64,000 bases of DNA from an uncultured Clostridium sp. (GTDB lineage: Bacteria > Bacillota > Clostridia > TANB77 > CAG-508): the NCBI GenBank assembly GCA_947368535.1, contig CANBHY010000007.1, positions 45,580 to 109,579 of the forward strand. The letters run 5' to 3'. The position numbers were made by a program, and so were the translations under genes. Shown in pieces: positions 8,598 through 20,588 of this stretch; the first letter of the stretch is position 1; each line of letters begins with the position of its first letter. Below the pieces are notes generated by a model. It saw nothing but the letters and a program-made list of their open reading frames with translations. It ran no database searches and was not told the origin of the DNA.

Positions 8598-11500
8598 TTA
8601 TTTTCTCATTTTATAGAAACTATATACTGCTATTACTAATAATGCTAATATTGATATTGTTAAGAAAATTCTTCTGAATGCTACACTTATATCTTCATAA
8701 CCTGTATAAGGTAAATCACTATTAGATGTAGTAGTCTTTGTTTGAGTTTCTGTTGTTTTTTCTTCACCTTTAACAATATTTGAATTAGTTCCTGTTGTTT
8801 TATTTCCACTATTATTTGAATTATTATCTTGACTTGGTTGTGTACTTGTATTTGGTTTATTATCTGGAGTTGATGTTGGTTTATCGCTTGGACTTAATGT
8901 TGGTTTATCGCTTGGACTTGGTGTTGGGTTATCGCTTGGACTTGGTGTTGGGTTATCGCTTGGACTTGGTGTTGGATTATCACTTGGACTTGGTGTTGGG
9001 TTATCGCTTGGACTTGGTGTTGGGTTATCGCTTGGACTTGGTGTTGGGTTATCGCTTGGACTTGGTGTTGGGTTATCACTTGGTTCAGGTTCTTTTTCAA
9101 TAATCCAATCAACTTTAGCTACAACTCTACCTTCATTTCCTGCTTCATCTCTAAATGTAAACTCAAACTCTCCATTTTCAGTAAAAATATATGTATCTTT
9201 TCCATCATTATTTGTTATTATAATTTCTTCATTAGCTTCTACAGTTGCTACTACATTTTCAGTAGTTTCTTCTGTTATATCATATGATACTCTAGCTATT
9301 GGAGCTTCTTTATCTATCCAATCTACTTTTACTGTTACTTCTCCATATTTTCCAGCTTTAGTAACATATTCAAATGTAAACTCTCCATTTTCGGTAAATG
9401 TGTATTCATCTTCTCCATCGTTATTTGTTATTGTAATTTCTTTACTGCTTTCTATTTTAGCTGTTACATCTTGATTTGTTATATTTTCTATATTATATAT
9501 AACTGTTATTTCTGGTAATTCTTTATCTATCCAATCTACTTTTGCTATTGCTTTACCTTCATTTCCTGCTTTGTCTATAAAAGTAAACTCAAATTCTCCA
9601 TTTTCTGTAAATATATACGTATTTTTTCCATTATTATTTGTTACTGTAATTTCTTCATTAGCTTCTAATGTAGCTACTACATCATTTCCTGTAATTTCAG
9701 TTATATCATAGTTTACTTTTCCAATTGGAGCTTCTCTATCTATCCAATCTACTTTTGCTGTTACTCTTCCTTCATTTCCTAATTTATCTGTATATATAAA
9801 TTCGAATTCTCCATTTTTAGTAAATGTATATGTGTTTTCTCCATCATTATTTATTATTGTAATTTCTTCATCACATTCTATTGTTGCTACTACATCCTGA
9901 ATAGTATCTTCTGTTATATCATAAGATATTGTTGCTTCTGGAGCTTCTTTATCTATCCAATCTACTACAGCTATTGTTTTAGCTTCATTTCCAGCTTCAT
10001 CTCTGAAAACAAATTCAAATTGTCCATTTTCAGTAAATGTATATGTGTCTTTTCCGTCATTATTCAAAACTATAACATCTTCGCTAGTCATTAAAGTAGC
10101 TGTTACATTTTGATTTGTCATTTCTGTAATATCATATTGTACTGAACCAATTGGTGCAACTTTATCAATCCAATTAACTACAGCCTTAATCGTTCCTTTA
10201 GTTCCTTTATTGTCAACAAATTCAAATGTAAATTCTCCATTTTCAGTAAATGTATATGTGTCTTTTCCATCATTATTTGTTATTGTAATTTCAGTACTTG
10301 GATTTACTACTGTTGCTACTACATCTTGATTTGTCATTTCTGTAGTACTATATTCTATTTCAGCAGTTGGCACTACTATTTCTTCTCTTTTAGTTATATC
10401 TTCATATAAATTTACCATAGCTACAGATGCAAATATACCATAAGTTTCTACTTCTAATTTTACATATTGACCATAGATACTTTCGTTAAATGTAATCTTT
10501 CTTAATTCATTATCTTGTGGACATTCTTCAATTCTTCCAGCTTCAATCCAATTTTCACCATCTTCACTTATATATACTATTGCATTTTTAATAAAGTCTG
10601 GATCATTTTCTTTATATTTTGTTTGAACAAATTCTAATGCTGACATATATCTTGGTTCATCTAATTTTATATTTATAAATGGATTACCTTCTTGTTCTAA
10701 AACTGAATATCTAAAGTCTGTATGCCATAATGTATTAATATTTCCGTCAATTGCATTTAGTGCATAAAATGGTCTTGCACTATCTGCGGATTCAGTTGAA
10801 TAACTCTCAATTGATAAATGTTTTATTGGTACATACTTTTGAGTTTCTGTGTCAGTATCTTGAGTGAATTGATATTCTATAATATCACTTGCTGTATATA
10901 AACCTTTGGCTTTTGCTCTAACTAATAATTTTCTGTCTCCTACTACCACTGGTTCTTCCTCACTATAATCTGTCCAATTATTATCATTTTCTAATTTCCA
11001 TTCAAGAATATCTTTATTATCTAATCCAATTAATCTATTTTCTAAATCATTTAAATATGCATTAATTGTAGGCACTGTTCCAGTTTTTATATTTATTGTA
11101 TATACTTCATTTTCATTAAATCTTATTTTTATCTTATTTTCTTCACTAATTTGATTTAGTTCTTCTTCTGATAATTGATTCTCTGATAAATTTCCTGCTT
11201 TCCATGTGTTTCCACCATCTATACTATATTCCCAATTTGAATTTTTATATTCATCCGCTAAAATTATCTTTCCACCATTAGTTCCATCAAATGAGAAATC
11301 AGCAACTATTTTTATCGTTGTATCTTCATAGAAGTTAAACATTCTAGCAGCTATAAAGTTTCCTCCACCGCCTGAAGAAGTTCTTGCTCCTACTATTTTA
11401 ATGTATTGAACTTGAACAGGTTCTTCAAAATCAATAGTTTTAGTTGTATCATTATTTGCCCATGTTACATTTTTTATTTCAGTAAAGTTTTCTCCATCCA

Positions 11501-14414
11501 TACTTCCTAAAATTTGAGCTTGTAATATTTTACCATTTCCACCTGCAGCTGGGAAATAATCCATAGCAGATAATATAACTGGTTTATCTAATTTAATAGT
11601 AATGTACTTTTGAGTATCACTTCCATTCCATGCTGAGTGCCATCTAGTATAATAATTTCCATCAATAGCAAATGATGCATTTCCTTGATTTGAAGTTGCT
11701 TCTGAAGAAACATTTTCTATTGATAAATGAGCTATTTTTATATATTTTCTCTTAGGATTTATTTCATCTTGAGTAAATTCTAAAGTTGTAACATCACTTG
11801 CTAATCCTGTTCCTGAAGGAGCCACTCTTACTTGTATAGTTTTATCTCCTGTTAAATCTGGTTCCTCTGTTGCATATGATGTCCATGGATCATTTTCATT
11901 AAAACGCCATTCCATTATATTTGTTGTACCCATTACTTTATTTTCTAAATCATTGTTATATAATGTTGGAGCATTTGTTTCTGTAATATCTATTTTATAT
12001 AAATTCTCTTCATTGTAATTTACACCAACAATATGAATATAAATATCATCTTCTGCATTAATACTCTTTATTTCTTCCTCAGTTAGTTGCCATTTATGTT
12101 CTTCTTCTGCTGAAAATGCTACTTCATGCCATGTTTGTTTTCCATCTAAACTATAATCCCAACGAACACCATTTCCATCAAAACGACTTGATAATACAAT
12201 TTTATCTGCATCTTCACCATCAAATGAGAATGTAGCTATTGTTTTATCTAATTTTCCTAATAAGAAATTAGCTTCTGTTCTTGTTAAAGATGGCTGATAA
12301 ACATAATAATTATCTGCTGTATTGTTAGGTACTTTTGTTCCTTCTGTTAATATTCTTGTTTGTAATAATGTAAATCTATAAGAATTTTCTACACTTGTTA
12401 ATTTAGGTTTTATTAAATTTGTTAATTGTTGCATTGGTAATGGGAAATATTTTAAGTTTTCTCCAACTTCTCTAGCCAACTCAAAATATTCATCTTCTGT
12501 TTTAGTTGTACTTGTATTATATACATTAATTAATCCTAACCATGCATCAAGATTTATTGGTTGTATTTCTAATGCTCTTCTATAAATCTCTTCTTGTTTT
12601 ACTAAATCACCTTCATATGATTTAGCAAGCATTACAGTTTCTTCACATTTTTCAAAATTTTCATAATCGTTTAATGCTTCTTGAGCTAATGCCATATATA
12701 CAACTTGATAAGATCCTCTAGCATAATTAGTATTAGCATTACCCCAACCTAATAATAATCTTTCACCTTTTTCAGATAAAGTCCATCCGCTTACATCATT
12801 ATCTAGATTCCAATATCCATTTCCATTGTTATCTTGACCATAATATATAATAGCTGCGTGTCCTGGTTGCCCTATAACTGCTGCAGGTATACCATGAGAT
12901 GTACGAATATTTGAACCCGTTTTTGAAATACCACCACAAACAGCTCCAGTTCCAAATTCATTTCTAAAGTTCATCCAAACTTTATAAATTTTTTTATTCT
13001 CTGAGCTATAAGTTACTCCATATTTAGAAAATATTCCATTGAATTTTTTATCCCAATAATCTTTTCTATCTGGATCATGGAATACTGGATTGCCATAATT
13101 AGGATACACATATGCCATATAAGGGTGTGGTGTTAAATATGTCCATGCCTTGTTTGGTTGTGCATCAATAAAAGATTGTGTATATTCATTTAACCATAAT
13201 ATTTCTTCATCATCTATAATGTTGTTTAAAACAAAACGCATTTCTTCTACATTATAAGATTCAAACCATTTTGTAATATCTATACTATCAGTAACTACAA
13301 AGTTTCCTTCATCATACATTTTCTTGAAAATTGCATAACGTGTAACTGCATCTGATTGATTTAATGGTTCACTTGGTTGCATCCATAAAGCTACACGAGC
13401 TGAATGTGTAAGTGAAAGTGTAATTGCCATTTTCTTATATAGGTCACCCTTTACTGTTCCATATTTTGATACTTCTTTTACTTCAAAATCATTTTGATAT
13501 TTAGTATATAATTTTGATAATACATTTAAAGAACTATAGTAACTACCACCTTCTGGCTTTCCACCAAGAATATAAAGCTTCAATGTATCTAAATCATTCA
13601 TCAACCATGAAAGTGTTGCTTGATTTTCTTCACTTTCACTACAAAAACGTTTTAAAGCATATTGACCAGCATTTGATACAAGTTCTCTTTGTAATAATAC
13701 TAGTTCATACTCTTTATTTGATAAATCTGCATTCGCAAATTCAGTTTTAATTCTTTTATCTAAGTCCTCAACGCTGTTAACTAATCCTTCACCTGGTTCT
13801 TTATATGTTTCTTTAATTAATTTAGCATCTGCATATACTGAATGGTCATTACCATTGCTTCCATTAGCATCTGCATATAATTTTAAAAATTTTGCATCTC
13901 TTATATCTATTTTAACAAATGTTGCATTTTGTCCAGGTTTAGATACTTCTGGATTTTCATCAGTTTTTAAGTTCCAATTTTTTCCGTCTTCTGAAGTATA
14001 AATATAAAATTTAACTCCATTACTACTAGATGCTGCTGTTGTATTTAATCCTATATATGCTGTAAAATAATCATATCCTAAGTAATCTGTTAAATCATAT
14101 ACTACTGTTGAAGTAGCATGTGCCCATATTCCTTTTTTAAATGAATAATTAGCACCTTCGACTTTAACTGATATTAATGCACCATCAGATGTCTTATCTA
14201 AACAAATTGTTTTCCATCCTGCAGCTGATTGATTTGCCACATATGGAATATCTGATAAATAACAAAATTCATTGTTATTAGAATCTTCTGTACTAGCTAA
14301 AACTGTAAAAGGACTAGTTTCATTTATTAGTAAAACTAGTGTTAATATAATAATGCAAAAACTAATTTTAAATAAGTATTTAAATCTACTTTTTTCATTT
14401 TCTATATTATTCAT
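8598..14414 (-). CDS. Giant (1938-aa) LPxTG cell-wall-anchored surface protein with NPCBM-like and F5/8 type C (discoidin) carbohydrate-binding domains; putative glycan-active adhesin/enzyme
   Basis: N-terminal signal/TM segment. An NPCBM-like segment follows it (CYLSDIPYV…GWKT…KKGIWAHATS). Discoidin motifs (AIDGN..T.WH) occur twice. There are seven tandem ~84-aa modules (DWIDKEAP…YDITE…TNNDGKDTYTFTENGEFEF…). A PSPSDNPT x~10 linker follows the modules. The C-terminal sorting signal is LPYTG plus a hydrophobic stretch and KMRK. Confidence 0.8.
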   Translation of the reverse strand: MNNIENEKSRFKYLFKISFCIIILTLVLLINETSPFTVLASTEDSNNNEFCYLSDIPYVANQSAAGWKTICLDKTSDGALISVKVEGANYSFKKGIWAHATSTVVYDLTDYLGYDYFTAYIGLNTTAASSSNGVKFYIYTSEDGKNWNLKTDENPEVSKPGQNATFVKIDIRDAKFLKLYADANGSNGNDHSVYADAKLIKETYKEPGEGLVNSVEDLDKRIKTEFANADLSNKEYELVLLQRELVSNAGQYALKRFCSESEENQATLSWLMNDLDTLKLYILGGKPEGGSYYSSLNVLSKLYTKYQNDFEVKEVSKYGTVKGDLYKKMAITLSLTHSARVALWMQPSEPLNQSDAVTRYAIFKKMYDEGNFVVTDSIDITKWFESYNVEEMRFVLNNIIDDEEILWLNEYTQSFIDAQPNKAWTYLTPHPYMAYVYPNYGNPVFHDPDRKDYWDKKFNGIFSKYGVTYSSENKKIYKVWMNFRNEFGTGAVCGGISKTGSNIRTSHGIPAAVIGQPGHAAIIYYGQDNNGNGYWNLDNDVSGWTLSEKGERLLLGWGNANTNYARGSYQVVYMALAQEALNDYENFEKCEETVMLAKSYEGDLVKQEEIYRRALEIQPINLDAWLGLINVYNTSTTKTEDEYFELAREVGENLKYFPLPMQQLTNLIKPKLTSVENSYRFTLLQTRILTEGTKVPNNTADNYYVYQPSLTRTEANFLLGKLDKTIATFSFDGEDADKIVLSSRFDGNGVRWDYSLDGKQTWHEVAFSAEEEHKWQLTEEEIKSINAEDDIYIHIVGVNYNEENLYKIDITETNAPTLYNNDLENKVMGTTNIMEWRFNENDPWTSYATEEPDLTGDKTIQVRVAPSGTGLASDVTTLEFTQDEINPKRKYIKIAHLSIENVSSEATSNQGNASFAIDGNYYTRWHSAWNGSDTQKYITIKLDKPVILSAMDYFPAAGGNGKILQAQILGSMDGENFTEIKNVTWANNDTTKTIDFEEPVQVQYIKIVGARTSSGGGGNFIAARMFNFYEDTTIKIVADFSFDGTNGGKIILADEYKNSNWEYSIDGGNTWKAGNLSENQLSEEELNQISEENKIKIRFNENEVYTINIKTGTVPTINAYLNDLENRLIGLDNKDILEWKLENDNNWTDYSEEEPVVVGDRKLLVRAKAKGLYTASDIIEYQFTQDTDTETQKYVPIKHLSIESYSTESADSARPFYALNAIDGNINTLWHTDFRYSVLEQEGNPFINIKLDEPRYMSALEFVQTKYKENDPDFIKNAIVYISEDGENWIEAGRIEECPQDNELRKITFNESIYGQYVKLEVETYGIFASVAMVNLYEDITKREEIVVPTAEIEYSTTEMTNQDVVATVVNPSTEITITNNDGKDTYTFTENGEFTFEFVDNKGTKGTIKAVVNWIDKVAPIGSVQYDITEMTNQNVTATLMTSEDVIVLNNDGKDTYTFTENGQFEFVFRDEAGNEAKTIAVVDWIDKEAPEATISYDITEDTIQDVVATIECDEEITIINNDGENTYTFTKNGEFEFIYTDKLGNEGRVTAKVDWIDREAPIGKVNYDITEITGNDVVATLEANEEITVTNNNGKNTYIFTENGEFEFTFIDKAGNEGKAIAKVDWIDKELPEITVIYNIENITNQDVTAKIESSKEITITNNDGEDEYTFTENGEFTFEYVTKAGKYGEVTVKVDWIDKEAPIARVSYDITEETTENVVATVEANEEIIITNNDGKDTYIFTENGEFEFTFRDEAGNEGRVVAKVDWIIEKEPEPSDNPTPSPSDNPTPSPSDNPTPSPSDNPTPSPSDNPTPSPSDNPTPSPSDNPTPSPSDKPTLSPSDKPTSTPDNKPNTSTQPSQDNNSNNSGNKTTGTNSNIVKGEEKTTETQTKTTTSNSDLPYTGYEDISVAFRRIFLTISILALLVIAVYSFYKMRK
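8857..9083. repeat. Perfect 24-bp tandem DNA repeat (~9 copies) encoding the PSPSDNPT linker
   Basis: ggacttggtgttgggttatcgctt is repeated head-to-tail with only 1-2 substitutions per copy. Confidence 0.9.
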
Positions 14415-14540
14415 ATCTTTTTACTCCTTTTCTTTTTAACTTCATCTATCATTATACCATATTTTTCATGTTATGTAAACTCTTGTGCCATTTTTTTGTA
14501 TTTCCAGACTTTTATTCCATTTTTCCAACATTTATATAAA

Positions 14541-14577
14541 TATGAAAAAAGTTGTAAAATATTACTTTTACAACTTT
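14541..14577 (-). terminator. Intrinsic terminator overlapping the stop of the radical SAM gene
   Basis: Hairpin aagttgtaaaa…ttttacaactt, followed by a T-run on the minus strand. Confidence 0.55.
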
Positions 14578-15371
14578 TCTTCTATTTCTAACTCTCTTTT
14601 TTTATAGTACTCCATAACTTTTGAACTTCTACTAAAAATTCTTACATTTCCTAATTTCATTAGTCTTCGTTTTATTTCTAGTTCATCAGAAATTTCATTA
14701 TAAAACAAATTATTCGCATCTGAAAAATGAACAGATTCAAGCGACCTCTCTTCTCCAAAAATACTTCCAACTACAACATCTTTTATATCATGGATTCTCA
14801 TTATATCTTCATATAACTCTATATCTTTCATTGTTATATTTTTCAAAACAGGTTTCATATATAATACTGTTGGTATTTTCCAATCTTTTGGAAGATCAAA
14901 AATTCTAAATCGTCTATCTGGTGAAGCTGTATTGGGTTCTATTTCTCTCCACCTACTTATTGTAGCTGAACTAACAAAAATAACAAATTGTCCTTTATAT
15001 TTAACTAATTCTTTATACTGTTCTATTTCTTCTGGTTTTATTTCTTTTTTAGTTGATAATTGAATTTGATTTCCTCTTTTTAAAAAATATTCTAGCAATT
15101 TTCTGGTTTCTGGTTTATTATTATCATCCCAACATTCTGAAAAACACCCTAAAGTTATTAATGTATCTTTTGTAATTCCTAAAGCTTCAATTTGAGAAAT
15201 TAAATCTTCTGCTTTTTTTACATCTAAAGACACATTTTTGTTATCATATCCCATTTTTGGTAAATAACAATATACACACTGTCCATTACATCCTAAACAA
15301 GTATTTACAAATATTCTCTTTTTATCTTTTGAATATAAATAGCCTGTGTTTATCATTTCTCTCCATTCCAT
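14568..15371 (-). CDS. Radical SAM protein, SPL/DNA-photolyase-like family (COG1533-like)
   Basis: CNGQCVYC (C-x3-C-x2-C) cluster near the N-terminus. 267 aa. Overlaps the upstream HD gene by 19 nt. Confidence 0.65.
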   Translation of the reverse strand: MEWREMINTGYLYSKDKKRIFVNTCLGCNGQCVYCYLPKMGYDNKNVSLDVKKAEDLISQIEALGITKDTLITLGCFSECWDDNNKPETRKLLEYFLKRGNQIQLSTKKEIKPEEIEQYKELVKYKGQFVIFVSSATISRWREIEPNTASPDRRFRIFDLPKDWKIPTVLYMKPVLKNITMKDIELYEDIMRIHDIKDVVVGSIFGEERSLESVHFSDANNLFYNEISDELEIKRRLMKLGNVRIFSRSSKVMEYYKKRELEIEEKL

Positions 15372-16006
15372 TCTTTCATAAATTCATCTAAAAATATTTC
15401 TAAAAACTTATGTCTTTCTTCTGCAATCTTCTTAGCTGAGTCTGTATTTATTAAATCTTTTATATGCAATAATTTATCATGAAAATGATTTATTGTTGTT
15501 TTTGAACCACGTTTTTTATACTCCTCACTAGTTACTATGGCTACATCATCTGGATCATACATTGGTTTCCCTTTTCCACCATCATATGCAAAAGTTCTGC
15601 CTATACCTATTGCACCAATTCCATCTAATCTATCTGCATCTTGTGCTATTTTTCCTTCTATTGAAAGTTCTATTTTAGTATTCATATTAGAACTAAATCC
15701 TAAATTAGCACAACTATATGTAATATTTTTTATATCACTTTCTTCCATATAATTATATATTCCTAATTCTTTTAATGTTTCTTCTAATTTTTCTTCAATG
15801 TCTCCATCAAAAAACTTGTGATCATATACATCATGTAATAAAGTAATCATTGCTACTACAAAATTATTAGCTTTCTCTTCTTTATTAATAAGCATACCAT
15901 TTCTGTAAACTCTTTGAATATGCCACCAGTCATGACTGCTATCTTCATTTTGACATTTTTCTTTCACAAAACTTTTTGTTTTTTCAATTATCTCTTCCTC
16001 ACTCAT
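15353..16006 (-). CDS. HD-domain phosphohydrolase (YpgQ-like (d)NTP pyrophosphohydrolase family)
   Basis: H…HD motifs (WWHIQRV…LLHDVYDHK…D). 217 aa. Confidence 0.65.
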   Translation of the reverse strand: MSEEEIIEKTKSFVKEKCQNEDSSHDWWHIQRVYRNGMLINKEEKANNFVVAMITLLHDVYDHKFFDGDIEEKLEETLKELGIYNYMEESDIKNITYSCANLGFSSNMNTKIELSIEGKIAQDADRLDGIGAIGIGRTFAYDGGKGKPMYDPDDVAIVTSEEYKKRGSKTTINHFHDKLLHIKDLINTDSAKKIAEERHKFLEIFLDEFMKEWNGEK

Positions 16007-16125
16007 ATATATTTCTCACTTCTATCTAATTTATATTTCCTAATAATTTTATCATGGCAATAGTCTTACTTCAATAGTTAATACAAAAAGAAAGTATCTA
16101 ATTTTTTGATACTTTCTTTTTACAC

Positions 16126-18528
16126 CTAATCTAAAATATACACCTTTCCTGAATATGCATCTAGCTCAACTAATTGTCCACTTTTTATCTCTTTAGTAGC
16201 ATTTATCGTTCCAACAATACATGGAACATTAAATTCTCTTGAAAGAATTGCAGCATGACAAGTTATCCCACCTTCATCTGTAATAAATCCAGCTGCTTTT
16301 TCCATTGCTGAAACATAATCAGGTGTAGTCATAGTTGCTACTATTATATCACCTTTTTCTACATTATAAATATCTTCATATTTCTTAAGTACTTTAGCTA
16401 TCCCCTTTACTTTTCCCATATTTGCAACACTACCACAAATTATATTTGATGTTCCTTCAACACTCTCATTTGAAGATTTGTAAATATTAGCTATTTCATT
16501 TTGAAGTAATATACTTTCATCTCCAAATACAGTATATACTTCATTATTAAGCCATATCATTGCAAAACCTTTTTTTCTCTTATGTATCATTTCTTTTATA
16601 TTTGCATCAACAACACCATTTTTTTCTAAAATTTGCAATATCTCTAAATCATCAAGCATTATTAAATCTATAGTTTCTATATTTATTCTGTTTGAAATTT
16701 CCTCAAATATAGTATGTCTAGCTAAATAAAATAAATGATCTGAATATTCTGTTGTATATGTCCTTAAAAACGTAAAATCTCTAATAGCTTTCACTATTTT
16801 TTGAACTTCTAATGAAAAATCATACTCTTTTAAAATATTCTCATACTCAATATCATTATCTTTTCTAACTTTTTGAATAATATTAATTTTCTCTTCAATA
16901 TTAGAATCAAGTAAATTGTCCAATCTTAATAAATATTCTTCTTTTTTAAAACAAGTATCTTCTAATTCTACTGGTCCTTTAATCCATGAATACTTTTTAA
17001 TATGTTCGTCTATTAAATCATCTACATTTTCCCCATTTTTCCTTTTTAAAGCTATTTTAAGTAAATCTAATGGTTCTTCACTATATGAAAGAATATCATA
17101 ATTAGGACAAGTAGAAATTTTAGAAAAGATTAGCTCTATCTCTTTTTTGGAAAAATTATTATTTTCTAATTCTTTTTCTAGTTTATCTATCAAAAACTCT
17201 TCTGGCCTTGTCATACCAGGAATAAAACTTTTAATATACATATCATTAAATTTTTTAAACTCTAACAACAATTCTTCAAAACTACATTCTTTAAAGTTTT
17301 TATTCTCTAAATACTCTAAATATTTTTTTATATCTTTTACTAAATCAAATTCAATATTAGCAAATCTTTCAAAAAAGTTATTTTCTTTACTATATTTTTC
17401 AAAAACATTAGATCCTGATTCTAATGCATATTCATCTCCATTTAAACATAGATAATTTTCAGTAGGAATGAAGAATCCTAACAACTCTTTTTGAAACTTT
17501 TCCATAGTAGAATATATTTCTGTATTTTCAACAAACCAGTTAAATCTCCTTGAAACATAAAAATTCCATTCTCCCGCTTTTTTTATTCTTTCTAATAATT
17601 CATTTTTTCTTAATGTTGTAATAGGTCTGCATTGCAATATATATATACTATTATTTTCAATTCCCCATTCTACATCAACAGGAAAACCATAGAAACTTTC
17701 TAATTTTTTTATCATATTAGACAACTGAATAATCATTTTATCCTCTAATTTTTGATTATCTCCATCATCTATATCCTTCCAATTAGTGGTATTATTAGTC
17801 TTTACTAATTTCATTTTTTGACACTTAATTTCTTTATTTTTTATCGAATTATCTTTTTTACTAACAATATATTTATCAGGAGTTACTTTTCCAGAAACAA
17901 TAGCTTCTCCTAAACCTAAAACAGCTTCTATAACTAATTGATCCAAATCATCTGTAGTTGGATTTGCAGAAAAAGCTACGCCTGAAATATCACTTTGAAC
18001 CATTTTTTGAACAACAACAGCTACTGATATATTATCTATATCACTATTTTTTATTCTATAAAAAATAGCTCTTGGACTAAAACCTGAAACCCAACATTTT
18101 TTAATATTATCAACTAAATCAACTTCATCTATATTTAAAAATGTTTCTAATTGTCCAGCCCAAGCATGTTCTTTTCCATCTTCTGATAACGCAGATGAGC
18201 GTACTGCAACATATTCAGAATCTAATTTTTTATAATAATCCAATAACTCGCTTTTTAACTTATCTGATATATTAGCTTCAAGAATAATTTGAGTTATCTC
18301 TTCTGAAACTTGATTAATTTTTTCCTCATTTTCTATATCACATGTCACAAGTATGTTTTTAATTTTATATTTAATATTATTTTCATCTAAAAACTCTTCA
18401 AATGTATCTGACATAACTACATAACCATTAGGCACATTTACTTTTGTTTGATACATTTTAGCTAAAGATAATCCTTTTCCTCCAGCTCTATCCTCTTCTT
18501 GTATATTTTCAAAAAATTTTATACTCAT
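16126..18528 (-). CDS. PEP-utilizing enzyme family phosphotransferase (PPDK_N ATP-grasp N-domain plus C-terminal phosphohistidine swivel domain; PpsA/Rph-like)
   Basis: N-terminal AGGKGLSLAKM…VPNGYVV (PPDK_N). C-terminal GGITCHAAILSREFNVPCIVG (PEP-utilizers mobile domain with catalytic His). 800 aa, the same architecture as rifampin phosphotransferase and PEP synthase. Confidence 0.75.
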   Translation of the reverse strand: MSIKFFENIQEEDRAGGKGLSLAKMYQTKVNVPNGYVVMSDTFEEFLDENNIKYKIKNILVTCDIENEEKINQVSEEITQIILEANISDKLKSELLDYYKKLDSEYVAVRSSALSEDGKEHAWAGQLETFLNIDEVDLVDNIKKCWVSGFSPRAIFYRIKNSDIDNISVAVVVQKMVQSDISGVAFSANPTTDDLDQLVIEAVLGLGEAIVSGKVTPDKYIVSKKDNSIKNKEIKCQKMKLVKTNNTTNWKDIDDGDNQKLEDKMIIQLSNMIKKLESFYGFPVDVEWGIENNSIYILQCRPITTLRKNELLERIKKAGEWNFYVSRRFNWFVENTEIYSTMEKFQKELLGFFIPTENYLCLNGDEYALESGSNVFEKYSKENNFFERFANIEFDLVKDIKKYLEYLENKNFKECSFEELLLEFKKFNDMYIKSFIPGMTRPEEFLIDKLEKELENNNFSKKEIELIFSKISTCPNYDILSYSEEPLDLLKIALKRKNGENVDDLIDEHIKKYSWIKGPVELEDTCFKKEEYLLRLDNLLDSNIEEKINIIQKVRKDNDIEYENILKEYDFSLEVQKIVKAIRDFTFLRTYTTEYSDHLFYLARHTIFEEISNRINIETIDLIMLDDLEILQILEKNGVVDANIKEMIHKRKKGFAMIWLNNEVYTVFGDESILLQNEIANIYKSSNESVEGTSNIICGSVANMGKVKGIAKVLKKYEDIYNVEKGDIIVATMTTPDYVSAMEKAAGFITDEGGITCHAAILSREFNVPCIVGTINATKEIKSGQLVELDAYSGKVYILD

Positions 18529-18529
18529 A

Positions 18530-18943
18530 TTATTCTCCTATTAAATCTAGAATCAAATTTTCCCAATCTTTTGTTGGTAAAATTCTTATATCAACATCTT
18601 CATCTGAATAATATTCATTAATAATACTATCAAATTTTTTATCTTGTAACTCTTTAGCATTTTTTGATGATAGCTTTATAGATTTATTGTTTATACCATT
18701 TTCAAAAACGATTTCTTTAGTTCTAAAGGAAATAGATATATTGCAAATTTCTTTTCCCACTAAGCTATTAAAATAACTCATAAATGTTGCCAGTTCTTCA
18801 TCTGAAGATTCTCCATAAAAAGCCATATGTACAGTTTTTCCTTTTTCTTCAAGTTTCTTCAAATTGCTTTTAAATATAATAATTTTATTAATATCCATAA
18901 ATTTTTTACTATCATATTCAAACATTAATATATATTTTCTCAT
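18530..18943 (-). CDS. Hypothetical protein (137 aa), translationally coupled between the XRE-HAD gene and the PEP-utilizing gene
   Basis: 4-nt overlap with the upstream gene and a 1-nt gap to the downstream gene. No recognisable motifs. Confidence 0.4.
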   Translation of the reverse strand: MRKYILMFEYDSKKFMDINKIIIFKSNLKKLEEKGKTVHMAFYGESSDEELATFMSYFNSLVGKEICNISISFRTKEIVFENGINNKSIKLSSKNAKELQDKKFDSIINEYYSDEDVDIRILPTKDWENLILDLIGE

Positions 18944-20019
18944 AATTCTATTCCTCCATCTTCATGAACTTTCATTCTAGAATTTAATTTTTCAATACAT
19001 TCCGCAATTCCATCAGAATTTTCCCAATTTCCAACAATTATATCTTTATCATAATTACCAAGTTCACCTATATTAGCAGGAGCAATAAATACTGATCTTA
19101 AATCTAATTTCTTCAATCTATCTTTATTTAATGTATACATTTTTAAATCTTCATCTTGAGAATCTCCACCAATTATTACAAAAGGAACATCATATTTTTC
19201 TTTTAACTTTTTAGTAAGCATAAATACTGATTCTGCTTTAGAATGTTTTTTAGGCTTTATATCAAACTCTTTTCCATAATCATCATAATAAGTAACAGTT
19301 TCAATATCTTCTGAATCAATAAGCCTATCTACTTCTTCACTTACTTTAGCTAAATCAGTTCTTGTTATATCTTCGAAACCAACATTATATAAACTAGTAA
19401 CTTCTGAACTTATTACTCCGCCGTATTGACTTACAATTTTTTCAATCTCACTTCTTTTTTCTAAGATACGTGTATCTAAAGTTAATAACTTGCCTGATTT
19501 GTCTTTTTTAATAATAAAACCACAATATTCTGCAACAGCTCCATCAAATAAATTAGGTAATCCATAATTTCCAGCTAATTCGTCAAGTAATTTGTATTTA
19601 CTTTTAGCTGATTCAAAAGCTGAACCTGTAATCATAGTTATTTGTACTTCACATTTTGACTTATTTTGCATTGCTATAACTGACTCAAAAAACTTTTTAA
19701 CATTTTCAGCTCCACCTTTTAATAATAAGTCCGTTGTACCAGAATAATCTAAAAATAATGGTATTACTCTTTTTCTAGTTGTTTCTTGATATTTTAGAAT
19801 ATCTCCTGGCTGACATTCTAAAACTCTACATATTTCTTCTAATGTGCTAAATCTCATCGCAGAGATATTTCCTGTTTTAATATTAGAAAGATTTACTGGT
19901 GAAATTCCAACTTCTTCAGCTAATTTTCCTAATGTATATCCCTTTTCTTTCATTATTTCTTCCAAATTTGTTATTATTGCCATAATATCTCTCCTTTTTC
20001 TACGGAAACAGTATATCAT
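18940..20019 (-). CDS. HTH_XRE DNA-binding domain fused to a Cof-type HAD phosphatase-like domain
   Basis: N-terminal helix-turn-helix LGKLAEEVGISPVNLSNIKTG. The C-terminus carries HAD motifs III and IV (KKHSKAESV; IIGGDSQDEDLKM). HAD motif I is degenerate (LFLDYSGTT, second Asp replaced by Ser). Confidence 0.55.
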   Translation of the reverse strand: MIYCFRRKRRDIMAIITNLEEIMKEKGYTLGKLAEEVGISPVNLSNIKTGNISAMRFSTLEEICRVLECQPGDILKYQETTRKRVIPLFLDYSGTTDLLLKGGAENVKKFFESVIAMQNKSKCEVQITMITGSAFESAKSKYKLLDELAGNYGLPNLFDGAVAEYCGFIIKKDKSGKLLTLDTRILEKRSEIEKIVSQYGGVISSEVTSLYNVGFEDITRTDLAKVSEEVDRLIDSEDIETVTYYDDYGKEFDIKPKKHSKAESVFMLTKKLKEKYDVPFVIIGGDSQDEDLKMYTLNKDRLKKLDLRSVFIAPANIGELGNYDKDIIVGNWENSDGIAECIEKLNSRMKVHEDGGIEL

Positions 20020-20079
20020 AACATTATGTAAAACGCAATAGTTTTATCGTTTATCATTAAATATTTTATTTTTATAGAT

Positions 20080-20117
20080 AAAAAATCAGCAGTCGCCCTT
20101 TCAGACAACTGCTGATT
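20080..20117 (-). terminator. Intrinsic terminator of the GC-rich ORFan
   Basis: Stem atcagcagt…actgctgat with a 14-nt loop, followed by a T-run on the minus strand. Confidence 0.7.
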
Positions 20118-20144
20118 ATTCTCCGAACTATATGACACCAACCT

Positions 20145-20468
20145 TCAATAGAGCCATGGTTTTCCGTCATTTTGTTCGCACTCCTTCCAGCCCTCTTCTT
20201 CCGGCTCTCCAGCGAAGTAACCTTCAGGCATTTTATATCCCTCAGGCAGCTCTTTCTTTTCAACCAGCTCAAAACCGCCATAAGAGATCTTTTCGTCTCC
20301 CTTTATGCTCTGCAGTCCACAAGACGGACACTTGCAAAAAGGAAGCACATTATGGTAGTAATATCCATCGCTATAGCCCTGCCCATACGAAATGGAACCA
20401 CAGTGCTCACACTTGAACAGCCCATAAAAATTTGATCTGCAACGCCGTTGTACCTTTTCAACTACCAT
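20145..20468 (-). CDS. Small zinc-ribbon protein (107 aa) inside a GC-rich islet
   Basis: CEHCGS…CKCPSCG (2x CxxC) plus an acidic C-terminus. RBS GGAGGAAAGAGG. A consensus sigma-A promoter lies upstream and a terminator downstream. The overlapping antisense ORFs (20072..20281, 20132..20416, 20172..20435) are GC artefacts. Confidence 0.5.
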   Translation of the reverse strand: MVVEKVQRRCRSNFYGLFKCEHCGSISYGQGYSDGYYYHNVLPFCKCPSCGLQSIKGDEKISYGGFELVEKKELPEGYKMPEGYFAGEPEEEGWKECEQNDGKPWLY

Positions 20469-20547
20469 ACCTCTTTCCTCCAGAAAATTTATTTCCTTTC
20501 GTATTCCACAAAGTACTGCGAAGGAATCATAAAGGATTGTCTTTTCT

Positions 20548-20576
20548 ATTATACCTCAACTTTTTACAATTTTCAA
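20548..20576 (-). promoter_or_regulatory. Consensus sigma-A promoter (TTGAAA-17-TATAAT) for the zinc-ribbon ORFan
   Basis: On the minus strand, ttgaaa attgtaaaaagttgagg tataat lies ~75 nt upstream of the ATG. Confidence 0.55.
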
Positions 20577-20588
20577 GTTATGTAAACT

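Follow-up and report, generated by a model that had tools for sequence, protein, structure and literature searches.

We analyzed a stretch of 64,000 nucleotides (nt) from a contig of an uncultured Clostridium sp. (the window, to which all coordinates refer), and in particular a cassette of three adjacent minus-strand genes that we call A, B, and C. The window has a low GC content (about 27%), is transcribed mostly from the minus strand, and is 98–99% identical to a contig of the metagenome-assembled genome (MAG) GCA_948493165.1. An original prediction, made from the letters of the DNA, had read the cassette as an operon encoding a DNA-binding pseudo-phosphatase (A), a small protein (B), and a phosphotransferase with the architecture of rifampin phosphotransferase (Rph; C), and had linked it to the inactivation of antibiotics or to metabolite phosphorylation. 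We find that the cassette is real, conserved, and undescribed, and that it brings together dikinases of an uncharacterized clade, a regulator of undescribed architecture, and an orphan partner protein. Its features are as follows.

18940..19983, minus strand: gene A, 347 amino acids (aa); XRE/Cro-C1 helix-turn-helix (HTH) plus a domain resembling HAD subfamily IIB
18530..18943, minus strand: gene B, 137 aa; orphan protein, predicted α/β fold
16126..18528, minus strand: gene C, 800 aa; predicted ATP-dependent dikinase of the Rph superfamily
20084..20117, minus strand: intrinsic terminator of the gene upstream of A; 15-bp stem, 6 GC pairs, T-run
20044..20060, minus strand: candidate operator of A; imperfect dyad of 17 bp (TTAATGATAAACGATAA) immediately 5' of the -35 box
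20010..20038, minus strand: promoter-like site of A, matching the consensus; TTGCGT (20038-20033), 17-nt spacer, extended -10 TGaTATACT (-10 at 20015-20010)
16080..16126, minus strand: terminator-like hairpin after C, 19-bp stem; begins at the last base of the C stop codon

Layout and boundaries of the operon

The open reading frames (ORFs) were first listed as 16126-18528 (800 aa), 18530-18943 (137 aa), and 18940-20019 (359 aa), all on the minus strand. A and B overlap by 4 nt (ATGA), with GGAGG placed 8 nt ahead (GGAGG-N8-ATGA), and B and C are separated by a single nucleotide (TAA-T-ATG), with AGGAG ahead. The three genes are translationally coupled, and the overlap and the 1-nt gap on which the original prediction relied were both confirmed. 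The start of A was revised. It had been placed at 20019 but is almost certainly the ATG at 19983, 36 nt inside the ORF, because the homologues of A are 347 aa long and cover 97% of the 359-aa ORF, because AAGGAG lies 8 nt upstream of this ATG, and because the ATG at 20019 falls within the spacer of the promoter-like TTGCGT-17-TATACT.

Terminator-like hairpins delimit the A-B-C transcription unit at its 5' and 3' ends. The hairpin 3' of C has a ΔG of -16.9 kcal/mol (z = -5.5), and none of 200 shuffled sequences folded equally well; it is AT-rich and was therefore missed by a G+C-based terminator scan. The terminator upstream of A is also present in a near-identical MAG contig (L001). A scan of positions 14000-22000 against Rfam at E ≤ 0.1 found no match to a riboswitch or other RNA family.

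Protein C groups with the small-molecule dikinases of the Rph superfamily

C is divided into an ATP-grasp domain (residues 1-309), a divergent and mostly helical central domain (310-694), and a C-terminal swivel domain with the phospho-histidine (695-800). Pfam recognizes the first (PPDK_N, residues 13-310, 307.8 bits) and the last (PEP-utilizers mobile domain, residues 724-794, 91.1 bits) and leaves the central span of about 385 residues unmatched; the central domain has no curated match in NCBIfam either. In a HMMER alignment, K18 (GGK18), R110, and T129 of the ATP-grasp domain correspond to K22, R117, and T136 of the Listeria enzyme RPH-Lm, ATP-site residues that were mutated in RPH-Lm (PMC4844700; PMC12167813). 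The swivel domain contains T756 and the invariant H758 within TDEGGITCHAAI (motif GGxTCH758AAI), and the conserved residues of the central domain include R583 and R589-T590.

An AlphaFold2 (AF2) model of C (predicted local distance difference test score, pLDDT, 86.6) was compared with known structures by Foldseek. The best match was Listeria Rph (5hv1), over the full length (E 3.6e-38) and with 23% structural-alignment identity, whereas phosphoenolpyruvate (PEP) synthase and PPDK were matched through their shared domains alone. The architecture assigned to C by the original prediction, PPDK_N followed by a C-terminal swivel domain in the order of Rph, is therefore upheld; in the structure search that it had called for, the model matches 5hv1 along its whole length, and the central domain has no match to a curated family. 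In the HMMER alignment, similarity to RPH-Lm continues into the substrate domain (profile 582-808, RPH 651-867), with no alignable match to Rph models before residue 582. Within block 9, the catalytic R666 is kept as R589, but E667 is replaced by an invariant Thr (T590) and K670 by T593.

Validated members of Rph clade A are >42% identical to RPH-Lm, a distant-clade homologue from C. difficile is reported to confer no rifampin resistance, and the distant Rph clades have been grouped as "small-molecule dikinases" with diverged specificity (PMC4844700). By these criteria, C would be assigned to a distant clade of small-molecule dikinases within the Rph superfamily and would not be classed as an Rph. 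It has the domain order, the catalytic His, and the ATP-site residues of Rph, and it also has the broader hallmark of small-molecule dikinases, namely an ATP-grasp domain and a swivel His domain that flank a divergent intervening domain. It lacks the Arg-Glu..Lys of block 9 and equivalog-level similarity, measured either as >42% identity or by curated score (276.3 bits against a cut-off of 999 for the Rph equivalog NF041857, and 172.1 bits against 1700 for NF000283). The low scores, the low identity, and the replaced residues of block 9 led us to reject C as a bona fide Rph.

The resemblance to RPH-Lm (5HV1, 5FBS; PMC4844700) thus lies in the single chain with its ATP-grasp domain, large substrate domain, and C-terminal swivel, and in the retention of the equivalents of K22, R117, T136, the catalytic His, and R666. 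C differs in having a central domain that is shorter by about 45 residues and escapes detection by Rph hidden Markov models (HMMs), and in sharing its operon with B and an HTH-HAD regulator, an arrangement that is not described for Rph. The two-component dikinases HpeHI, CreHI, and PpsAB (phenylphosphate synthase) pass phosphate from ATP via His to an acceptor hydroxyl, and they show that members of the superfamily phosphorylate a wide range of small molecules in inducible pathways of catabolism or scavenging (PMC12167813). C belongs to the same superfamily, and HpeI (9goj) is a fold match of its ATP-grasp domain; these enzymes, however, are split into two polypeptides and encoded in aromatic-catabolism clusters of aerobes or denitrifiers, whereas C is fused and occurs in gut Clostridia without attached catabolic genes. 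The prodiginine condensing enzymes PigC, RedH, and HapC share the three-domain layout of C, and the PigC model matches the terminal domains of C with 292.8 bits. This is below the cut-off of 1300 bits; moreover, C has no pigment cluster beside it, and its central domain is unrelated in sequence to theirs. The NCBIfam models for PEP synthase, Rph, and PigC all match the terminal domains of C alone, far below their cut-offs.

Protein A joins an XRE HTH to an HAD-like domain that lacks the Asp+2 acid/base

Residues 1 to about 67 of A form an XRE/Cro-C1 HTH, which Pfam identifies clearly (HTH_26, 67.9 bits against a cut-off of 22; HTH_3, 31.2 bits against 23) and whose profile matches in the Protein Data Bank (PDB) include SinR, PezA, and HipB. 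The remainder (about 68-347, 280 residues) resembles HAD subfamily IIB. In the window protein this part scores 17.9–18.8 bits against S6PP, for which the cut-off is 20.3. Among 24 relatives of A, S6PP is matched by 11 (best E 7.2e-6), Trehalose_PPase by 8, and Hydrolase_3 by 4; all three are Cof-type (IIB) HAD families. Neither the window protein nor its relatives matched the CheY-like receiver family Response_reg (PF00072) in Pfam.

Four HAD motifs occur in collinear order: motif I is D79-Y-S81-G-T-T-D85 (in the context IPLFLD79), motif II is T119-G120, motif III is K249, and motif IV is G272-G273-D274..E278-D279. In the 24 sequences, the nucleophile D79 is invariant, and the Thr of motif II, the Lys of motif III, and the acidic residues of motif IV are invariant or nearly so. 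The insert between motifs II and III has the size of a C2B-type cap. The motif I signature DxDxT, with its acid/base at Asp+2, is not found in A, which reads D79-Y-S81-G-T; the Asp+2 position is occupied by Ser or Thr (Val in the single outlier P0234) and by Asp in none of the 24 sequences. Motifs III and IV are in register with those of E. coli OtsB at an hhalign probability of 1.9%, obtained with an OtsB sequence that was validated as a trehalose-6-phosphate phosphatase (T6PP) by its 434 bits to 6upb. Sequence profiles of the HAD part, searched against solved structures in the PDB, reached no HAD structure. An HAD fold of subfamily IIB type for residues 68-347 is moderately supported, the motifs arguing well for it but not proving it.

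A thus shares with the HAD-IIB phosphatases (T6PP/OtsB, sucrose-6F-phosphate phosphatase, MPGP, and Cof) the collinear motifs I-IV, the C2B-sized insert, and family-wide Pfam matches; it differs from them in the Ser or Thr at Asp+2, in the XRE HTH at its N-terminus, and in the score of the window protein, which is below the Pfam cut-off. The original prediction is supported in describing A as an XRE HTH fused to a Cof-type HAD domain, and it was right to call motif I (DYSGT) degenerate. Its term pseudo-phosphatase captures the loss of Asp+2 but is too strong, because the nucleophilic Asp, the Thr, the Lys, and the acidic residues are kept; judged by these residues, the domain does not appear to be a dead pseudo-enzyme. 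No description of an HTH-HAD transcription factor was found in the literature searched. One locus (L026) carries a second paralogue of the HAD domain of A, which lacks an HTH, is 32% identical, and lies about 7 kb downstream (18866-19576).

A and B are the core pair of a cassette that recurs in gut Clostridia

A scan of 185,579 species-level genomes recovered 18 loci, all in MAGs of uncultured gut Clostridia apart from one in Erysipelotrichaceae, and metagenome look-ups added further loci. About 25 distinct loci, whose flanks are unrelated, share the A-B-C order, and order and tight spacing are kept in every sufficiently long locus in which A is at least 44% identical. This recurrence is far beyond chance and bears out the original reading of the three genes as an operon. 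The arrangement can vary in detail: in L026, an FMN reductase gene (11495-12058) is inserted between B and C, and in L032 (3648-7732), A is split into an HTH gene (99 aa) and an HAD gene (243 aa). The L032 cassette adjoins SRA-HNH (ScoMcrA-like) and HEPN_Apea genes, the only context resembling a defense island that we saw.

B had been treated as incidental. It has no match in Pfam, NCBIfam, or PADLOC. We collected 184 close homologues, which are about 136–139 aa long among the 120 listed, and a word-index-free HMM search of 1.84 billion representative proteins returned 19 relatives, all of at most 165 aa and none fused to another domain. The sequence FEYD near the N-terminus is invariant and a GINNKSIKLS hairpin is conserved, as are Ser residues such as S88 and S92; we looked for a conserved His in the family alignment and found none. 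The AF2 model (pLDDT 87; predicted template modeling score, pTM, 0.80) has an α/β fold, and its Foldseek matches are weak and HAD-IIB-flavored (E 2.5e-3, TM 0.39). The idea that B is a paralogue of the HAD domain of A was dropped, as hhalign gave B versus A a probability of 0.5%.

In three distant lineages in which A is 31–35% identical, the pair (A'-B') is kept with DYSGTTD and GINNK intact and no adjacent C. Because A-B pairs persist in this way, B is an obligate partner of A and not an incidental gene. An orphan homologue of C (46% identity) adjoins a phosphoglucomutase gene with no A-B nearby and keeps 36 of the 36 invariant residues of the central domain; the acceptor site therefore has a function for which an adjacent A-B pair is not required. 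A-B is thus the core pair of the cassette, and C has a function that is independent of A-B adjacency. The distant pairs without C (L027 3849-4499; L044 10480-14600) have varied surroundings. In Erysipelotrichaceae, an HTH_11-WYL regulator comes after the pair, and in L044, the pair stands between recF-gyrB and a TraG/DUF87-type ATPase gene with a ParA-like gene.

In a partial Mantel analysis of the three proteins, the correlation of A with B was 0.76 after controlling for C (p = 0.0002), that of B with C was 0.48 after controlling for A (p = 0.004), and that of A with C was 0.09 after controlling for B (p = 0.31). These values serve as a hint only, since B lies between A and C and physical linkage confounds mirror-tree co-variation.

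All-against-all clustering of the flanks revealed no conserved extra partner gene. The gene 3' of C encodes an HD phosphohydrolase in five loci, but these HD proteins are non-orthologous, and the recurrence is suggestive of a type of neighborhood only; elsewhere this position is taken by HAD_2, NUDIX, DHH, nitroreductase, flavodoxin, MatE, MFS, GNAT, MBL, and other genes. The HAD part of A, B, and the central domain of C were absent from 72,556 plasmid records. Generic HTH matches aside, B and the HAD part of A were absent from 50,697 phage records, and the HAD part of A was absent from IMG/VR. In PADLOC-DB v2, B and C had no match and A had weak generic HTH matches (capH, E 9e-5).

A conserved dyad adjoins the promoter-like site of A

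The original prediction supposed an operator for the XRE protein, and phylogenetic footprinting yielded a candidate. The best copies of the candidate operator form a 17-bp dyad with the consensus ATAAYG-ATAAA-CGWTAT. The sequence GATAAACG is present in 10 of 17 upstream regions, compared with 13 occurrences in 704 kb of background; the 17 regions come from related loci, so binomial p-values overstate their independence. The upstream regions have otherwise diverged between loci. A locus has either one site or two (as in L013) with a spacing of 21 bp, and the positions relative to the -35 hexamer are constant, at -16/-17 and -37/-38; at the place of the promoter-like site in the window the homologous loci have TTGACA-17/18-TGnTATAAT. 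The window contains a single copy (20044-20060), which is both the only exact GATAAACGA in the 64 kb and the best dyad match; a search of the window for further sites found nothing beyond AT-rich matches with three mismatches. The conserved dyad beside the -35 box argues for autoregulation of the operon.

A possible pathway and its alternatives

We tentatively favor the reading, to which we assign a probability of roughly 0.45, that A-B-C is a self-contained, autoregulated, and inducible operon that phosphorylates a small molecule (X) other than rifampin. By homology, C can load the β-phosphate of ATP onto His758 and carry it to a second site that keeps the key Arg. The swivel would bring the phosphate to the divergent central domain, which would hold a small molecule as the acceptor, and the products would be AMP, Pi, and X-P. 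A would be the transcription factor of the operon, with its XRE HTH binding the 17-bp dyad or dyads beside the -35 box. Because the Asp nucleophile and the phosphate/Mg2+ site are retained in its HAD-IIB domain while the Asp+2 acid/base is lost, we propose that A turns over slowly and senses a phosphorylated ligand, in the simplest case X-P, such that expression would track the availability of the substrate. B may modulate or bridge A as its dedicated partner.

Several observations are consistent with this proposal. The ATP-site residues and GGxTCH758AAI of C are conserved, its domain order is that of Rph, and 5hv1 is its best structural match; the alignment with RPH-Lm runs into the substrate domain with R666 retained as R589, and the orphan C keeps its central-domain invariants. 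On the side of regulation are the HAD-IIB sugar-phosphate families matched by 11 of the 24 A relatives, the candidate operator, the translational coupling, and the bounding hairpins. The gene 3' of C often encodes a phosphohydrolase or is of an accessory or detoxification type, in flanks that otherwise vary. Other observations weigh against the proposal. The central domain of C matches no curated family, and the replacement of the Rph catalytic Glu and Lys makes the chemistry of the second half-reaction uncertain. The sequence profiles of A do not lead to a solved HAD structure; A also retains the whole phospho-Asp machinery, which is more than a passive ligand sensor needs. The candidate operator lies upstream of the -35 box, an unusual position for a simple XRE repressor. 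Finally, B is the most tightly linked component, as it pairs with A even where C is missing and co-varies with both A and C, yet the proposal gives it no necessary role.

The main alternative is a non-canonical phosphorelay, in which C would be a sensor kinase of dikinase type and the phosphate of its phospho-His758 would be passed, directly or via B, to Asp79 of A, so that the HAD domain would act as a receiver that switches DNA binding at tandem sites beside the -35 box. The active sites of HAD proteins and CheY-type receivers are analogous; P-type ATPases have Thr at Asp+2 and take their phosphate from a high-energy donor; and swivel His domains can phosphorylate proteins, as Enzyme I does HPr. 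A keeps the Asp nucleophile, the Mg2+ ligands, the Thr, and the Lys but never the Asp+2 acid/base, so its chemistry resembles that of P-type ATPases and CheY, which are fed by high-energy donors. Operator copies 21 bp apart that abut the -35 box recall those of many response-regulator activators, and B co-varies with A and with C, while the A-C correlation vanishes when B is taken into account. We nevertheless consider a relay unlikely. Three lineages have A-B with intact HAD motifs and no adjacent C, and at least one orphan C keeps identical invariant residues in its central domain; physical linkage with recombination would produce the same co-variation, given that B lies between A and C; no target promoter beyond that of the operon itself was found in the 64-kb window; and B has no conserved His. 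The likeness to the phosphotransferase system (PTS; Enzyme I to HPr) and to two-component His-Asp signaling is by analogy only, in the swivel phospho-His donor and the receiver-like HAD site, as the cassette has no HPr, HPt, or receiver (PF00072) domain. The fuller version of this scheme, a new His-to-Asp pathway from a PEP-synthase-type dikinase (C) in place of a histidine kinase, through B or directly, to Asp79 of an A that activates from tandem sites, is, if anything, a little less probable. We judge it very improbable that the cassette is a tripartite toxin-antitoxin or defense-like module of HipB-HipS-HipT layout, with C as a kinase toxin directed at an essential metabolite or other target and B as the small protein that neutralizes it. 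The order of HTH, small protein, and kinase, the overlapping and coupled genes, the autoregulatory dyad, the narrow distribution with variable flanks, the SRA-HNH and HEPN_Apea genes beside one locus, and the presence of PezA and HipB among the matches of the A HTH would all fit such a module. The resemblance to HipBST, however, is in layout only: we saw no fold relationship of C to HipA or zeta kinases, A has an extra HAD domain of 280 aa, and nothing speaks for toxicity or mobility. B and C are without PADLOC matches, the phage, IMG/VR, and plasmid collections yielded nothing of the cassette beyond generic HTH matches, A-B occurs without C, and an orphan C without A-B is not expected of a toxin. 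The identities of A, B, and C also fall together across loci, which is consistent with mostly vertical inheritance within one clade.

Two readings that start from the annotation of C fare worse. That C is a kinase conferring resistance to rifamycin or another antibiotic, with its own regulator, is very improbable: the Rph architecture, the best structural match to RPH-Lm, and the MatE or MFS efflux genes directly 3' in two loci favor it, but C scores 276 bits where the cut-off is 999 (NF041857) and 172 bits where it is 1700 (NF000283), has 23% structural-alignment identity where validated clade A members exceed 42%, has a central domain without a sequence match to Rph models, and has Thr in place of E667 and K670. 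The distant-clade C. difficile homologue, moreover, reportedly gave no rifampin resistance (PMC4844700), and the cassette is absent from the 72,556 plasmid records. We thus found nothing specific to support the link to rifamycin or other antibiotics in the original prediction. There is next to no chance that C is an ordinary PEP synthase (pyruvate, water dikinase) with unrelated neighbors. The top NCBIfam and PDB sequence matches of C do carry that name, but they cover the ATP-grasp and swivel domains alone, and TIGR01418 gives 374.7 bits against a cut-off of 739.75. C has no PEP-utilizers_C TIM barrel. Its His domain stands at the C-terminus, with the last residue of the protein at 800, and C has the Rph-type domain order and strict linkage with A and B. 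PEP synthase was therefore refuted by domain content, domain order, and score. The original prediction had named a PEP-synthase domain together with a lack of neighborhood conservation as grounds for abandoning it; the TIM barrel is absent and the conservation is strong.

Surroundings of the cassette in the window

Directly 3' of the cassette, at 14568-16006 (minus strand), two genes share an overlap of 19 nt, one for an HD phosphohydrolase (217 aa, YedJ/PRK10119-like) and one for a radical SAM protein of 267 aa. They have a promoter-like site of their own and occur only in the lineage of the window (L001-L003). Beyond it, at 8598-14414 (minus strand), lies the gene for a predicted surface protein of 1938 aa, with repeated modules of about 90 aa, a (PSPSDNPT)n linker, and, at the C-terminus, an LPYTG-like sorting signal with a hydrophobic tail behind it.

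The window between about 6000 and 30100, like L012, L014, L016, L019, and L022, contains co-directional arrays rich in small nucleotide and phosphoester hydrolases. One cluster of HD-domain proteins has 19 members in six loci, with about five copies in this part of the window, and the same arrays include NT5C deoxynucleotidases (in six loci), two Ham1 proteins, and His_Phos_1, NUDIX, DHH, and UMPH-1 members. Such surroundings could hint at a nucleotide-related substrate or could merely be the genome style of the clade.

Upstream of A, a 455-bp segment (20134-20588) located between a Ham1 gene and the Ham1 terminator is absent from the otherwise 98% identical contig L001. It has a GC content of 42–46%, compared with about 27% for its surroundings, and carries a promoter-like TTGAAA-17-TATAAT and an ORF (20145-20468, minus strand) for a Cys-rich protein of 107 aa with CxxC..CxxC and no family match. 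The segment looks like a small foreign insertion. Further upstream, at 21992-23879 (minus strand), a DUF87/HerA-type P-loop ATPase is split into ORFs of 304 and 236 aa with a gap of 260 nt, where L013 has an intact protein of 589 aa; it is followed by a gene for a conserved Cys-rich protein of 242 aa (21271-21999), and the two may be a decaying two-gene module. A DUF87/TraG-type ATPase as a shared partner of the cassette was considered and rejected, as the copy in L044 is not homologous to that in the window.

Implications

We found nothing relevant to the architecture of the cassette in the literature searched. The value of the finding is tempered by the small number of genomes that have the cassette: 18 of 185,579 at the species level, all of them MAGs of uncultured Clostridia or Erysipelotrichaceae. 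The Rph superfamily is large, its members are often misannotated as PEP synthase, and the substrates known for it are rifampin, a few phenolics, and prodiginines. A dedicated regulator with a candidate operator offers an experimental handle on the inducer and the substrate of the C clade, and recognition of this clade guards against miscalling these gut-microbiome genes as rifampin-resistance determinants or gluconeogenic enzymes. In A, an XRE HTH is joined to a nearly intact HAD-IIB-like core that systematically lacks Asp+2, which would represent a new type of sensor domain for bacterial transcription factors, whether it senses a phosphorylated metabolite or is itself phosphorylated. If the relay were true, HAD domains without Asp+2 would constitute a second, independently evolved class of phospho-Asp receivers in transcription factors.

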